Shown here: positions 5,887 through 59,852 of the stretch, one piece after another
Layout of the letters: the number at the start of each line of letters is the position of its first letter
Position numbering within the stretch: the first letter of the stretch is position 1
From: Candidatus Gastranaerophilales bacterium
GTDB lineage: Bacteria; Cyanobacteriota; Vampirovibrionia; Gastranaerophilales; Gastranaerophilaceae
Assembly (NCBI GenBank): GCA_944326605.1
Contig: CALVEM010000005.1
Location: 20,447-84,446, forward strand
DNA: 64,000 nucleotides
Direction: 5' to 3'
The notes under the pieces: model-generated
What the model saw: only the letters and a program-made list of their open reading frames with translations
Databases searched by the model: none
Told to the model about the DNA's origin: nothing
Program-made: the position numbers and the translations under genes

Positions 5887-6699
5887 TTATTCCGCTATAT
5901 TCGTATACGGCGAAACTGTCAAAGGTGCTGAAAGTTTCAGCTCAAACGTAGTTCCGTCGGGAATATTCACATCACGTCCTCTTTGCATTGCTCCGCGTAA
6001 TCCTCCGCCTAAAGCTCCAACACCGCCATAGATTAACATATTTCTTCCCCAGTCATCGCCGCCGCCAAGTGCTGTGAAGGCGGCTCCTATTAACATGGTT
6101 CCGAGAGCGCCGACAACAATATCTCTTGTCATTTTTTTAGCGCGTTCATTTTCCTCTTCCATATAAATTTTTTCTGTTGAAATATCAATCAGATTGCCGT
6201 CAGGAGTTAAAATTTGATTAAAACTGAATTCCACGGCGCCGCTTCCGTATGCATAACCTGCATTTTGCGCATCTGTAGCCGTGCCGTATACAAGACTTCC
6301 CGCAGGTGCTATTAAAACTCCGTTATATACAAAATTTTCAGTTAGTGTCGCTGTTAATCTGTCGTCTTTTTCCAGACTGCCGGAATTTATTCCGGAATCA
6401 AAGGTGATTTTGAAAACAGTGCCGGCAGGAATTTGAACAACATTTCCGGTAAGGGTTCGGGGGGGGGGCGGCTCATAAGTATTATTTAAAATCTCTTCCT
6501 GTATAATTGGCGGATTATAATTCGTTCTGTCCTGATGTTCTCTTTTTTTATAAAAATTATTTTCAACCGGTGCGGATTGGACGGGCTGAAACCTTTTTCT
6601 GTCAAATTCCGCCTGTGCCTCATCGCTGAAATCATATTCAGCCAGAACAGGAAGTGCTAATATTTGAAAACTTATTAAGAGAGCCAGAATCTTTTTCAT
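5887..6699 (-). CDS. Secreted protein with glycine-zipper segment; contains an in-frame C10 tract
   Basis: Signal peptide MKKILALLISFQILALPVLA; IPAGT...IPAGS beta domain and GALGGGLRG zipper; C10 encodes EPPPPR. Confidence 0.7.
   Translation of the reverse strand: MKKILALLISFQILALPVLAEYDFSDEAQAEFDRKRFQPVQSAPVENNFYKKREHQDRTNYNPPIIQEEILNNTYEPPPPRTLTGNVVQIPAGTVFKITFDSGINSGSLEKDDRLTATLTENFVYNGVLIAPAGSLVYGTATDAQNAGYAYGSGAVEFSFNQILTPDGNLIDISTEKIYMEEENERAKKMTRDIVVGALGTMLIGAAFTALGGGDDWGRNMLIYGGVGALGGGLRGAMQRGRDVNIPDGTTFELKLSAPLTVSPYTNIAE
6459..6468 (-). repeat. Homopolymer C10 (G10 on + strand) inside a CDS
   Basis: Directly counted, 6459-6468. Confidence 0.9.
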
Positions 6700-12692: not shown

Positions 12693-13915
12693 ATGAAAAG
12701 ATTATTAGAATTAATTGAAAGTTTCGGGGGGGGGGCTTTGTAGGCTCCGCCGGAGGCAAAGAAGCAGCTAGAAGCAAAGATGCTAAGAGGCGAAGATGCG
12801 AAGCAAGTATCATTTACGTCATCCTGAACTCGTTTCAGGATCTATTAACTAGAAACAAAGATGTCAAGAGGCGAAGACGCGAAGCTAATATCAATAATAA
12901 CTTATGTTGCAATTTTCCCAAAATAACTATAAATGAATACCCTTTGCAAAGTGAGCGCTCTCCATTCAGTGAGTGTGCTACGCACGTAGTCCTGTCGAAT
13001 AATTCATGTCAATTCTCACTAAATTATTGTGAGGTTAGTGCTCACCCATCCGGCACGATGTGCCACCTTCTCCCGCACAGGGGAGAAGGAAATGAACTTC
13101 TAAAACACGGAGGTCAATCCGACGTTCATGAGATGCTGAAACAAGTTCAGCATGACATGTTTAACTTTTTGAAACGAACTTATTCACTTATTAACCTATT
13201 TACTTATTCACCTCGTAAAAGCGCAGCATTTACGCTAGCAGAGGTTCTCATCACCCTCGGTATCATCGGTGTTGTTGCCGCTATGACTATGCCTGTTTTA
13301 ATCGGGAATTACAGGAAAAATGTTGTTGAAAATCAATTGAAAACTGTTTATTCATTAATTTCAAATGCTGTAAGAATGGCGGAGATAGATAACGGAGAGG
13401 GGTTTATGTTCGCAGTCGGCGAGGAGTTTGATAATGATAAGAATAATAATTCTTTTGAGCAGAGTGAAGCTGTATTTAATGCATATTTTAGAAGATACTT
13501 TAAGATAATTAAGGATTATCCAAAAAACAATGACATTTTTCTATCACGCGGATTTACTAAAAACAGCACAGCAACTGATGAAACAAATTATGCAAAATGC
13601 GTTCAGTTAGCTAACGGAATTGCATTATGTTTTTTCCCGAAGGGTGGAAATAGGGGACAATTTATTGTTTATTTAAATCCTGATAAGAAAAATAAAATAG
13701 ACGGCCGAGATGTGTTTGCATTTCGTCTGTCAAGAGATAGAGGTGCGTTCTTTCTATCACAAAACCTTGATGTTTCAAGAGAAAAATTAATTGAGGGTTG
13801 TGTAAGTTCAGATCCGCATCCAATAAGTACGGATTTGCTTCGCCCGGATGTATGTACTTTCTTAATAATGCAAAATAATTTTGAAATACCTGATGATTAT
13901 CCGGTAAGTTTTTAA
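12693..13915 (+). CDS. Type IV pilin/pseudopilin-like protein, locus A, frameshifted at G10 (putative phase OFF)
   Basis: ATG 12693 reads MKRLLELIESFGGGAL*; the frame of ORF 12944..13915 is stop-free back to the G tract; G11 or G8 fuses them; AAFTLAEVLITLGIIGVVAAMT at 13223 onward. Confidence 0.85.
12726..12735 (+). repeat. Homopolymer G10 at codons 12-15 of pilin locus A
   Basis: Directly counted. Confidence 0.95.
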
Positions 13916-37486: not shown

Positions 37487-38563
37487 ATGACAACAACATT
37501 AGAAAAAACAAATTTAGATGAATTTGAAAGATTACTTGAGGAATCTTTTTCAAAATCTTTTTCAGTAGCTGATATCGTTGAAGGTACAGTAATGAAAAAA
37601 GAAAACGACGGTTATTTAATCAGTGTTAAAGGTGCTAAAACAGAAGCATTTTTACCTTTGAAGGAAATATCTTCATCAGAAGGCGCTGAAACTTTAGAAA
37701 TCGGTGATGAAAAAGAATTTTATGTATTGAAAGAAGAAAATGATGAAGAAGGTATGGTTCTTTCTTTGAAAAGACTTGCTAATGCTCAAGCATGGGCTCA
37801 GCTTAATGATGCAAAAATCCAGGGTGATACAATCTTGGCAAAAGTTGTTTCAATCGTTAAAGGCGGAGTTCTTGTTGACGTTGCTGATTTAAAAGGCTTT
37901 ATTCCTTCTTCTCAATTGAGAACAGGAACACCTTTTGACGGTTTGATTGATACAAAAATAGAAGTTAAAGTATTGGAAGCTGATCCTAAGAAAAATAAAC
38001 TTATACTTTCTCAAAGACAGGCTGTCGCTGAACAGCGTGATCAGGTTGTAGACAATATCCTGGCTGAACTTGAAGAAGGACAGGTTGTAAAAGGAGAAGT
38101 TGTAAGAATTGCTGATTTCGGTGCATTTGTTGATATTAACGGAATAGATGGACTTCTTCCGATATCTGAAATTTCATGGTCAAGAATTAAACATCCGTCA
38201 GATGTTATTTCTCTTGGTGAAACTATTGAAGTTAAGATTATTAAAATTGATAATGAATTAAAGAGAATTTCCCTTTCATTAAAGAGAATGGGCGAAGACC
38301 CATGGCATCAGATTGAAGGTCAGTTTGAAGAAGGTCAAATTATTAAAGGAACTGTTAATAAAGTAACCGGTTTTGGTGCATTTATTAATATTTTCCCGGG
38401 TGTAGAAGCCTTGTTGCCTGTTTCTGAAATGGCTGAGGAAAACGTAAATCCGTTTAATACTTTCAAAGTTGGTGACAGTGTAGAAGTTCTTATTAAGAAA
38501 TTTACACCTCAAGAACACAGAATTGCATTGAGCATTAAAGATATTAATAAAGATGCTGAATAG
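37487..38563 (+). CDS. rpsA: 30S ribosomal protein S1
   Basis: Four S1 domains (GFIPSSQL, DFGAFVDINGIDGLLPISEISW). Confidence 0.93.
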   Translation: MTTTLEKTNLDEFERLLEESFSKSFSVADIVEGTVMKKENDGYLISVKGAKTEAFLPLKEISSSEGAETLEIGDEKEFYVLKEENDEEGMVLSLKRLANAQAWAQLNDAKIQGDTILAKVVSIVKGGVLVDVADLKGFIPSSQLRTGTPFDGLIDTKIEVKVLEADPKKNKLILSQRQAVAEQRDQVVDNILAELEEGQVVKGEVVRIADFGAFVDINGIDGLLPISEISWSRIKHPSDVISLGETIEVKIIKIDNELKRISLSLKRMGEDPWHQIEGQFEEGQIIKGTVNKVTGFGAFINIFPGVEALLPVSEMAEENVNPFNTFKVGDSVEVLIKKFTPQEHRIALSIKDINKDAE

Positions 38564-38580
38564 TTAATTCATATTTATTG

Positions 38581-38615
38581 AAAACAGACCGGACTTGAAA
38601 AGTCCGGTCTGTTTT
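38581..38615 (+). terminator. rpsA terminator hairpin (its loop carries the -35 of the next promoter)
   Basis: AAAACAGACCGGACT-TGAAA-AGTCCGGTCTGTTTT. Confidence 0.85.
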
Positions 38616-38623
38616 GTTATAAT
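38595..38623 (+). promoter_or_regulatory. Sigma-70 promoter of pilin locus C
   Basis: TTGAAA (38595-600)-N17-TATAAT (38618-23) with TG extension; AGAGG RBS; ATG 38656. Confidence 0.75.
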
Positions 38624-38655
38624 AGATATGTTGCAGAAAGAGAGGAAGCGAAATT

Positions 38656-39758
38656 ATGGAAAAGTTTGTTAAGAGATGTGAATTCGGGGGGGGGGCGTTG
38701 TAGGCTCCGCCGGAGGCAAAGACGCAATTAGATGCGAAGAGGCTAAAAGGCGAAGATGCAAAGCTAATATCAATAATAACTTATGTTGCAATTTTACCAA
38801 AATAACTATCAATGAAAGCCCTCTGCAAAGCGAGCGCTCCCCATTCAGTGAGTGCGCAAATCAGCCCTCACCCCATCTCTCTCCCATAGGAGAGGGAGTA
38901 ATCTGTCATCCCGAACTTGTTTCGGGATCTCAAGAGATGCAGAGCCGCCGAGGTCAATCCGACGTTCAGCATGACATTAATATTTCCCTGAAACGTACTT
39001 ATTCACCTATTCACTTATTTTCTTATTCTCCTCGTAAACGCGCAGCGTTTACACTCGCTGAGGTTTTAATCACCCTCGGCATTATCGGTGTGGTTGCCGC
39101 GATGACTATGCCTGTACTTTTTGCGAAATATCAGCATAGGGTTTTAGAGACCGCTTTTAAAAAATCTTATGCAAATCTTTATAATGCCGTGAATTTGACA
39201 ATTTTTGAACTTGGTGCACCCAATATGGCTTCTAGTTTTATTGCTTATAATGATAATGAGTTTTATGTCAGTGTTTACAATAAATTAAATACTATTGAAA
39301 CAATATCGGAAAAATACTATTCGACAAAAATTGATCTTAAAGGTTATACTAAAAAATCTATAAAGGGTGCATCTCCAACACAATCGCAAACTCGAATTGG
39401 ACATATACTGGCAGATGGGAGTGCAATCGGCGGAATGAAAAATTCAGGCGGCTGGTATTTTACAATAGATACAAACGGACCCCAAAAAGGTCCGAATGCA
39501 TACGGACATGATATTTTTATATTTGTCATTAAATCTGCGAATTCACCGAGATTGGAGGCTGTTGACAGAGAGCTTGCCCACAAGACTGATGATGACGGAA
39601 ATTCCTTTACTCCCGATGATGGTGCATATTTTGAAACTTCTCGAGAATGCAGCAAAACCAGCACAAAATTATCTAACGGTTTTGGCTGTACTCCTTATGC
39701 CGTAAAAAATATTTGTCCTGATGACAGCTCAAAGACATACTGGGAGTGCCTGCCTTAA
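38656..39758 (+). CDS. Type IV pilin-like protein, locus C, frameshifted at G10 (putative phase OFF)
   Basis: ATG 38656 reads MEKFVKRCEFGGGAL*; the frame of ORF 38937..39758 is open back to the tract; G11 or G8 fuses them; AAFTLAEVLITLG; IDTNGPQKGPNAYGHDIF. Confidence 0.85.
38686..38695 (+). repeat. Homopolymer G10 at codons 11-14 of pilin locus C
   Basis: Directly counted. Confidence 0.95.
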
Positions 39759-57751: not shown

Positions 57752-58930
57752 TTAATTAATAAAGTCTCCTGTCGCATCATAATTTATATAATTTAATTTT
57801 TCGTCAGTTAATACTGATTCTATTTTTGTATGCCAGTTGCTAATTTTGTTGTTAGTAATAATAAAACTATAGGCATCGGCGCCGAGCTGATTTGGACCTT
57901 TAAGTCCGTTAGCATCAATAAACATTACCCCGCATTGTTTTTGATAAGTTTCTGTTGTTTCGTAACCTCCGTTGCCGTCAGGAATCCAGTTGCCATCTGC
58001 ATCTGTAACTTTATTAGTAAATATTCTTCCGCATTTACTATCTCCGCCTACATAAGGATTTATTGCGATTATAGAGCCATCGGCAAGTACAGCTTTAGAA
58101 TAATTTTTAATTGAATGAGTGGCATTTTTCCCTTTGCCGTCATTGTATGCTTTCGGATATTTATAATACTCCGGAGCACAGCCTGATGAGCCAGGTTTAC
58201 ATATTTGAGCAGTATTTAAATATGAAAAAAATTCATTAACTAACTCATCTTTTGTTTTTGTTTGAATAAATATATCTGCATAATCGTATGCCCCTTCATC
58301 AAATTTCCACCTGTTCATAGCATTCAGAACTGTAGAATATGTTTTTTAGTTTGAGTAGCAAATACTTTATTTTTATAATTTGCAATTAACGCAGGCATAG
58401 TCAATGCCGCAACAATTCCGATAATTCCAAGGGTGATTAAAACCTCAGCCAAAGTAAATGCGGTGTGACGGACATTGTCAGTGGTGTCTACGTGCGTAGC
58501 ACCTTCTGCTAGAGTAAACGCGACTTTTTTATGGGGAGAATAAGTAAATAAGTGAATAGGAGAATAAGTTCGTTTCAGGATCTTATGAGATCCCGAAACA
58601 AGTTCGGGATGACGGATTGCTGCCTCTCCTATGGGAGAGAACTGGGGTGAGGATTGATTTTCACCCTCACCTTTACTTCCCCTCCCCTCAAGGGAGGGGA
58701 TATTTTTTTCTCCTCTCTCCCCAAAGGGGCGAGAGTTAGTGTGAAGAAACAGCGTAGCCGTTCCATCCGACACACGGATTTTGCATGAATTTTTCAGGTC
58801 ATTCTGGGCGAAGCGAAGAATCGCATTACCGTCACGATTATGCGAATGCCTTAGCTCTAAAACACTGTAATCCCTTGTTACATCTTTATCCTGTTGGGGG
58901 GGGGCAACTCAAAGCTTCTCTATTAAACAT
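57752..58930 (-). pseudogene. Type IV pilin-like protein, locus D: C9 frameshift in the leader plus a second frameshift at A6 in the mature domain
   Basis: GGAGG RBS, ATG 58930 reads MFNREALSCPPPTG*; C8 or C11 opens the leader into ORF 58324..58773; adding one A at T6 58342-47 joins it to ORF 57752..58318 (KKTYSTVLNAMNR; IDANGLKGPNQLGAD). Confidence 0.85.
58896..58904 (-). repeat. Homopolymer C9 (G9 on +) at codons 9-12 of pilin locus D
   Basis: Directly counted. Confidence 0.95.
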
Positions 58931-59030: not shown

Positions 59031-59852
59031 TTAAGGAAGGCAATCCCAGTATGATTTGCCTGAATTATCAGGACATTTGTTCATAAGTGCATAATACGCG
59101 CAGTAAAATCCGTTGGAATCGCTGGTATCTGTTAAAGAACATTTTTTTTCTGTTGATACATTATCTCTGTTTGATCCGTATCCCGGTTCATCTTCTTTAT
59201 AGTTTCTGTAAGTGAAAGTTGCTTCTACGGCACATGTATCTTTGTTAAGGTGTAACCCCCATATATCGTGTCCAAATCTGTTAGGCCCTTTCATTCCGTT
59301 TACATCTACTGTTATCAGTGTTCCTCCCCCATCGTCAGAAGAAGACGGGTGAGAACAAATGCCTATAAAACTTCCGTCATTTAGAATTGCCTGATAATTA
59401 GGACCCCAATGCCCTACATAGTTTTTATTTCCAATAAGACAATTCATGTGCAAATTATCATTGGCTTCTGCACCGGTAAAGGTATATTGTTTATAATTTG
59501 CCGGAGGAATTGTGTTAGCGGAATTTTGCCCTTCTTATTTTATTTTACCGGCAGCATTAAGTTTGTCATAAATAGTTCTTTTTATTTCTTCGGTTTGTTC
59601 AACATTACAGTTATTATATTCATATTTAATAGTAGCTGCTACCTGACTTAAAACAGAGTAATGTTTTTTGAACTGTGTTTCCAGAACCTTATGTCTATAA
59701 TTTGCGGTTAATGTCGGTATAGTCATTGCTGCAATAACACCGATGATACCTAGGGTAATTAATACTTCTGCTAATGTAAATGCTGCTCGCCGGATATTGT
59801 CAAAGTGAACTACTTGAGTAGTACATTCTGCAAGAGTAAAGTCTGTATTCAT
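59031..59852 (-). pseudogene. Type IV pilin-like protein, locus E, with a single in-frame TAA
   Basis: ORFs 59535..59852 and 59031..59453 share a frame; the only interruption is TAA 59535-59537, followed by 27 sense codons; VDVNGMKGPNRFGHD and YWDCLP end. Confidence 0.85.

Follow-up and report, generated by a model that had tools for sequence, protein, structure and literature searches.

Locus C, a pilin-like gene in a 64,000-nucleotide stretch of DNA (the window) from Candidatus Gastranaerophilales bacterium, is probably subject to phase variation by strand slippage at the DNA level, in which a tract of ten G residues would keep the gene OFF by default, and one further G would open a reading frame through a long leader that is translated and then cleaved off as filler. 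The evidence lies in the layout of the locus, in a frame rule that it shares with its family, in tract-length polymorphism at paralogous loci and in the lack of amino-acid constraint on the leader. The Gastranaerophilales are non-photosynthetic gut relatives of the cyanobacteria, and the genome analyzed here comprises 2.05 Mb in 26 contigs at 35% GC, with a stated completeness of 99.9%.

Layout and reading frames of locus C

Locus C has an S1-domain gene as its neighbour on one side and rpoD on the other. Its features, in window coordinates, are the following.

38595..38623, plus strand: sigma-70-like promoter TTGAAA-17-TATAAT with a TG extension, 11 of 12 matches
38641..38658, plus strand: Shine-Dalgarno (SD)-like AGAGGAAG and ATG 38656, the putative start of the ON state
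38656..38703, plus strand: OFF-state ORF of 15 codons as assembled (G10), ending in TAG 38701-38703
38686..38695, plus strand: G10 homopolymer; G11 (or G8/G14) joins the ATG to the pilin frame
38696..39047, plus strand: 117 post-tract codons of leader in the pilin frame, stop-free, made of repeat modules
38726..38857, plus strand: block in common with locus A (12847-12978), 86% identical over 132 nt, in the same frame
38871..38896, plus strand: CT-rich hairpin CCCCATCTCTCTCCCATAGGAGAGGG, 9-bp stem, -14 kcal/mol, not at the corresponding place of locus A
38904..38935, plus strand: REP-like palindrome, read as CHPELVSGS, 8-bp stem, -12.3 kcal/mol
38937..38939, plus strand: ATG, the sole canonical in-frame start between tract and F, without an SD-like motif; the choice of ORF callers
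38950..39047, plus strand: cleavage-proximal module (GQSDVQHD...KRTYS...RKRAA), common to locus A and about 30 other leaders
38999..39030, plus strand: array of four 8-nt tandem units (TTATTCAC-like), with equivalents in most long leaders
39048..39113, plus strand: prepilin N-terminal methylation motif and start of the hydrophobic helix (FTLAEVLITLGIIGVVAAMTMP), PF07963 and TIGR02532
39048..39758, plus strand: mature pilin-like protein of 236 aa plus stop, with four C-terminal Cys

Transcription would start from the promoter at 38595-38623, which overlaps the hairpin that ends the upstream S1-protein gene, and no comparable second promoter-like site was found on the plus strand between the tract and the pilin motif. 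A scan of 38500-39200 against Rfam gave nothing near any gathering score, with weak matches on the upstream terminator hairpin. Translation would begin at ATG 38656, which has AGAGGAAG 8-15 nt on its 5' side and is separated from the tract by ten codons. With G10, the ribosome would stop after 15 codons and the pilin frame, which follows TGA 38679-38681 and stays open from 38682 up to its stop codon (39756-39758), would be left without an SD-preceded start, so that the gene would be OFF. The gain of one G during replication would fuse the start to the leader and the pilin in an ORF of 367 codons. The original prediction that G11 yields a 131-residue leader up to the F at 39048 is borne out by the frame count from ATG 38656, (39048-38656+1)/3. 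The homopolymer is thus so placed that a change in its length toggles the full-length ORF, as in a contingency locus. The predicted last step is cleavage before F 39048 by the A24 prepilin peptidase (PF01478), encoded by a single gene in this genome (C1:233147-233536), after which the leader would be discarded. Other parts of the assembly machinery are a T2SSE/PilB-like ATPase (C5:118996) and a secretin (C5:117600).

The protein downstream of the leader has the marks of a type IV pilin. PF07963 scored 26.1 bits (cut-off 21.2) and TIGR02532 18.9 bits (cut-off 16.3), and the FTLAEV motif has F at +1 and E at +5, followed by hydrophobic residues. An AlphaFold model, with pLDDT >90 over most of the mature part, consists of a 53-residue helix (residues 120-172) and then a beta-rich head, the arrangement of the pilin fold; as a Foldseek search of the model against the PDB returned no match at E <= 0.001, the head domain appears to have no close solved relative there. 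The C-terminal domain had been assigned to the same subfamily as that of locus E, and the two are indeed related (41% identity over 123 aa, E 3e-23). Canonical type IV prepilin leaders measure about 5-30 residues and carry Gly at -1. Locus C resembles them in the basic residues before the cleavage site, the F at +1, the E at +5, the hydrophobic helix and the presence of an A24 peptidase, but differs in having Ala at -1 (RKRAA, then F) and, in its ON reading from ATG 38656, a leader of 131 residues; from ATG 38937 the leader would be 37 aa. To our knowledge, a prepilin leader of 131 residues has no precedent.

Tract lengths and strand across the genome and the genus

Locus C belongs to a large family of genes of the same construction. 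An independent search recovered 110 pilin-like N-termini, of which 72 have a tract of at least 8 within 1 kb upstream; the 38 tract-free genes mostly have an ATG 3-13 codons before F, that is, an ordinary prepilin leader. G or C runs of at least 8 number 89 in the genome (one of 8, ten of 9, 74 of 10, two of 11, one of 12 and one of 16), and most of them show the arrangement of an SD motif and an ATG followed by 8 to 12 codons. Runs of length 7 occur only three times, against 74 of exactly G10/C10, an excess far beyond chance in a genome of 35% GC.

The frames of the SD-preceded ATG and of the pilin join only at a tract length of 11 in about 65 of 68 loci of this genome; its two G11 loci are in frame, and its G9 loci need -1 or +2. 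The same rule applies to 78 of 83 loci in other species of the genus, where 32 of 33 G10 loci need +1, 23 of 25 G11 loci are in frame and 23 of 25 G9 loci need -1 or +2; several of these in-frame G11 loci have intact leaders of 108-147 aa. Among tracts of 9-11 nt in 41 genomes of the genus, 1829 are G10 (82%), 223 G9 and 165 G11. G10 tracts, 12-100 per genome, are found in all but one of the 48 genus genomes searched, and outside this genus they are enriched mainly in one other family and one further genus of the class. One species (genome G003) departs from the G10 rule, with 15 G11, 12 G10 and 5 G9, which could reflect biology, with many loci ON, or another method of sequencing or assembly. 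We also considered G9 loci as decaying copies, since 3 of 7 in this genome have a truncated mature domain, but 25 of 25 are intact in other species and the idea was dropped.

The original claim of a G10 switch has indirect support at locus C, in that tract length varies at paralogues. A public contig (L061) aligns with a contig of the present assembly (C23) over 2412 nt with 0 mismatches and 1 gap, which is G11 versus G10, and the G11 form encodes 403 aa from the SD-preceded ATG, including a 164-residue leader. Likewise, four other samples have G10 at C1:243489 where the present genome has G9, and one of the four shows 0 mismatches over 7365 nt. At locus C itself and its orthologues, however, the tract is G10 in 7 of 7 assemblies (four near-identical, two from divergent strains and one from another species), with no ON (G11) allele among them. 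In the 90% cluster of this pilin, all members are forms called from internal starts. Three neighbouring loci in up to ten other samples were G10 in 27 of 27 observations. Such uniformity is unusual for hypermutable tracts. In addition, the ON length is 11 at nearly every locus even though three combinations of pre- and post-tract frame are in use, and simple slippage does not explain a rule that spans these combinations. Fast equilibration at a mutational mode, which the consensus would then always show, second-order selection for a state that is OFF by default and one step from ON, and recoding at G10 are possible sources of the uniformity.

Some tracts depart from the usual construction. The G16 tract at C14:12867-12882 lacks the two bases that usually come next, which makes it the counterpart of a 14-nt tract and keeps it in frame; it indicates that tracts can expand well past their usual length. 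Some cassettes (C1:176965, C1:243489 and C14:43136) have an additional ATG upstream of the tract, in a different frame, and public gene calls from this ATG are in frame at G10 or G9 (e.g., proteins MCRVKRL.. and MKNSGAS..); these could represent a two-start arrangement or chance. In-frame tracts (G10/C10, and one G12) are also present in non-pilin ORFs, at 6459-6468 of the window (within a minus-strand gene at 5887-6699), C2:3445, C2:27094, C3:13884 and C12:5418. These ORFs, which include a TrbI-like secreted protein, are candidate phase-variable genes with a default ON state.

The orientation of the tracts follows replication. In 81 of 89 tracts the G-run lies on the leading strand, the one with positive GC skew, irrespective of gene direction, and within each contig the G-runs all lie on one strand, so that genes on the opposite strand have a C10 mRNA and a different leader cassette. 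Since the strand of the G-run is fixed, the orientation of the gene relative to replication decides between G10 (Gly) and C10 (Pro) in the mRNA and between the leader cassettes. In a closed 1.87-Mb genome of the genus (G052, contig C1), all 32 G10 tracts fall into two replichore-like blocks, a plus block from 1.36 Mb through 0 to 0.24 Mb and a minus block from 0.26 to 1.04 Mb, which match the two domains of GC skew found by sampling at 93-kb intervals. A strand rule tied to the fork fits a device that works by replication slippage and has no obvious meaning for recoding by the ribosome or the RNA polymerase.

The regularity of the tracts invites a bolder reading, which we regard as unlikely: G10, with G on the leading strand and ON one G longer, would be the designed set-point of a replication-coupled device that leaves about 70 pilins poised a single step short of expression, or else the G10/C10 tracts would undergo a low-level -1 shift or transcript slippage. 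Were the set-point or the recoding real, these genes would form a family of a new kind, poised or recoded, with the giant disposable leaders as a side effect. The narrower proposal that G10 is itself the working state, with expression by -1 ribosomal frameshifting on the G/C run or by an RNA polymerase that adds one G, would keep all of the roughly 70 pilins at a low constant level with unchanged DNA, and it seems distinctly improbable. It would account for the fact that nearly every locus, here and in 17 other species, is exactly +1 from G10 despite differing phases, as well as for the stability of G10 across samples and strains down to about 95% identity, and a G run is formally a slippery X XXY YYZ site. 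Nevertheless, no stimulatory RNA structure follows the tract: in the 45 nt downstream, the mean minimum free energy over 70 loci was -6.6 kcal/mol, the mean z was -0.07, and 1 of 70 loci fell below -2. Moreover, no downstream sequence is conserved across the cassette classes, so that the tracts do not have the make-up of -1 frameshift sites, and placement of G on the leading strand would be left without a rationale. Efficient slippage would also damage the non-pilin genes that have G10 in frame, in-frame G11 alleles exist as DNA, and in one commensal analogue that has been studied experimentally, expression hinged on replication slippage (PMC9187656).

Modules, frame and constraint in the leaders

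Between the tract and the F of the FTLAE motif, the pilin frame is uninterrupted in 70 of the 72 tract-linked genes, over up to 694 nt; these 70 leaders contain 0 stops in 6408 codons, and the other two frames contain 547 and 418. Counted from the tract, the leaders vary in length between 7 and 231 residues, and they are patchworks of modules that recur among them. Between tract and F, 50 of 70 leaders lack any in-frame start with an SD-like motif and 28 of 70 lack an ATG altogether, which leaves the upstream SD-preceded ATG as the sole credible start of most members of the family, whose leaders must then be read through.

It is therefore very unlikely that the tract and the upstream frame are irrelevant at locus C, with the pilin made from ATG 38937 and everything upstream forming a repeat-filled 5' UTR. 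ATG 38937 is in frame and is used by public annotations, 34 blocks of the collection contain the 273-aa protein, and some internal ATG is available in 42 of 70 leaders. Against this, ATG 38656 has an SD-like motif and ATG 38937 has none, the 80 stop-free codons upstream of 38937 and the stop-free leaders of the family would go unexplained, 28 leaders offer no ATG for such a start, and indels keep the frame upstream of internal ATGs as well.

The leader of locus C had been described as assembled from modules with its frame preserved, and both parts of the description stand. The block at 38761-38856 matches 12882-12977 of locus A over 96 nt with 8 mismatches and no gap, in accordance with the match first noted between the two loci. 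Also as noted, locus C then carries the CCCCATCTCTCTCCCATAGGAGAGGG hairpin and the REP, both of which fold, and locus A has other modules at the corresponding place. The CT-rich hairpin module has 3-6 copies in other leaders and 4-5 elsewhere. The REP is represented by about 117 copies genome-wide, 65 of them intergenic and 46 within the pilin leaders, themselves about 1% of the genome. In locus A it is read as VILNSFQDL, in another frame, and the opposite orientation is found too. With its palindrome, its dispersed and mainly intergenic copies and the presence of Y1 (RAYT/IS200-type) transposases in the genome, it has the properties of a REP-like family; two Y1 transposase genes (PF01797; C6:51449-51808 and C4:32158-32475) are candidate mobilizers of the REP family in the leaders. 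The 8-nt tandem array encodes a conserved peptide, RTYSxIHLF(T/S)YS, just before the cleavage site, and 33 nt are missing at this array from a public variant of the locus C pilin. Tandem duplication of the FTLAE motif itself (AFTLAEGATHV...AFTLAEVLITLG) was observed at locus D (58324-58773, minus strand) and also at 59535-59852, and a GATHV-type insert after the first FTLAE recurs at other loci of this genome and in related species, e.g., C1:42500.

Indels in the leaders were proposed to be multiples of 3, and comparisons among paralogues and among orthologues agree on this. In blastn among 50 long leaders, 1882 HSPs preserve the pilin frame, and in 1437 of these indels have changed the distance to F; 29 HSPs break the frame. 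These counts come from HSPs that do not represent independent events and from leaders that had been chosen for being open. A further 412 HSPs pair palindromic modules in inverted orientation. Three orthologues of locus C that have the same 5' cassette (MEKFVKRCEF) and the same S1-pilin-rpoD synteny possess leaders of 352, 469 and 346 nt, which differ in module content and whose length differences of 117, 6 and 123 nt are all multiples of 3. A further orthologue, with a mature pilin 91% identical, has only 12 codons from tract to F.

The leader residues are without amino-acid constraint and are not conserved as protein. In aligned leader segments, pN/pS was 0.72 in the real frame and 0.87 and 0.64 in the wrong frames, compared with 0.38 in the real frame and 0.95 and 1.34 in the wrong frames for the first 40 mature codons. 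Searches of the locus C leader against Pfam and NCBIfam gave no family, and AlphaFold assigned it no secondary structure (pLDDT about 36-53). Because the frame is open, indels come in multiples of 3, amino-acid constraint is lacking and one orthologue manages with 12 codons, the leader has the appearance of filler that is translated but dispensable. On the simplest reading, it is translated and then thrown away, with selection only removing stops and frameshifts. As a discarded leader need only stay open, it would act as a sink for genomic repeat modules, which would survive there only in frames and orientations without stops. An alternative role, in which a long untranslated leader tightens the OFF state through Rho-dependent polarity, was rejected as unsupported, since the Rho RNA-binding domain (PF07497) was not found in this 99.9%-complete genome; absence of Rho is usual for relatives of the cyanobacteria.

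The last alternative, that G10 is an assembly or sequencing artefact (with a true length of 11 and the gene always ON) or that locus C is a silent, decaying copy, is extremely unlikely: homopolymers of at least 10 are error-prone and one missing base would put all pilin loci in frame, but the same correction would break the in-frame G10 of four non-pilin ORFs (e.g., 6459-6468), which indicates that the assembler is not dropping a base, G9, G10 and G11 are all called with the G11 loci in frame, G10 recurs in NODE_, k127_ and scaffold_ contigs (names that suggest different pipelines) and in a closed single-contig genome, tract strand follows the replichore, a rule tied to replication, and the mature domain of locus C is intact, with an N-terminus under purifying selection.

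Relation to known switches and significance

A few mucosal pathogens provide the textbook cases of homopolymer contingency loci. In layout, the locus described here is closest to pilC of Neisseria, for which Jonsson and colleagues reportedly described in 1991 a poly-G tract in pilC1/pilC2 of N. gonorrhoeae and N. meningitidis whose frameshifts turn expression ON and OFF. Both systems have the G run in a part that is removed, in pilC the part coding for the signal peptide, so that the mature protein is unaffected. However, PilC is a tip adhesin with a Sec signal peptide, encoded in one or two copies, whereas here the tract lies in the class III leader of pilin-like subunits, at about 70 loci per genome, and the leader can exceed 100 and reach 230 residues. 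For the modules, palindromic elements of Rickettsia are said to occur in frame within protein genes and to be translated as extra peptide segments (Ogata and colleagues, 2000). In both cases palindromic repeats are tolerated inside ORFs when the frame is kept; the Rickettsia elements lie in mature proteins, whereas those described here lie in a leader predicted to be cleaved, where one gene can contain several and where one and the same REP serves in at least two frames and in both orientations.

Campylobacter jejuni has roughly 30 contingency loci in varied gene classes, and their tract and ON lengths differ between genes. In the present genome, by comparison, one gene family dominates, 83% of the tracts have a length of exactly 10, and 11 is the ON length of nearly all. 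The intragenic poly-G/C loci of C. jejuni are many, measure about 8-11 nt and switch genes for surface structures (PMC8355987). The closest commensal that has been studied experimentally is Bifidobacterium breve UCC2003, in which bbr_0113 and bbr_1889, loci for sortase-dependent pili, depend on replication slippage for their expression (PMC9187656). As described there, B. breve is likewise a gut commensal with a short start-bearing ORF followed by an intragenic G-tract and a pilin that is out of frame in the reference, and the study lists G-tracts of 8-11 in the pilus clusters of other bifidobacteria. The loci of UCC2003 differ in being of the sortase type with a Sec signal and in having no repeat-built leader, and the accessible sections report neither a uniform tract length nor a rule for the ON length. 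What sets the present system apart from these known switches is the location in the class III leader of type IV pilins, the scale, the uniform set-point, the strand rule and the very long repeat-built leaders. Full-text searches for literature on Melainabacteria or Gastranaerophilales together with pilin, homopolymer or phase variation found nothing relevant.

The system belongs to a common, uncultured lineage of human and animal gut commensals, which devotes about 70 loci of a 2-Mb genome to one family of surface-filament subunits. If switched, some 70 pilins would imply a very large combinatorial surface repertoire, of relevance to adhesion and to evasion of immunity and phages. Unusual even for specialists are the leaders of up to about 230 residues of translated repeat filler, the near-invariant pairing of length 10 with ON at 11 and the restriction of G to the leading strand. 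The tracts offer a natural test bed for how replication asymmetry shapes the design of switches, and the giant leaders would show how much leader a substrate of the prepilin peptidase can carry.
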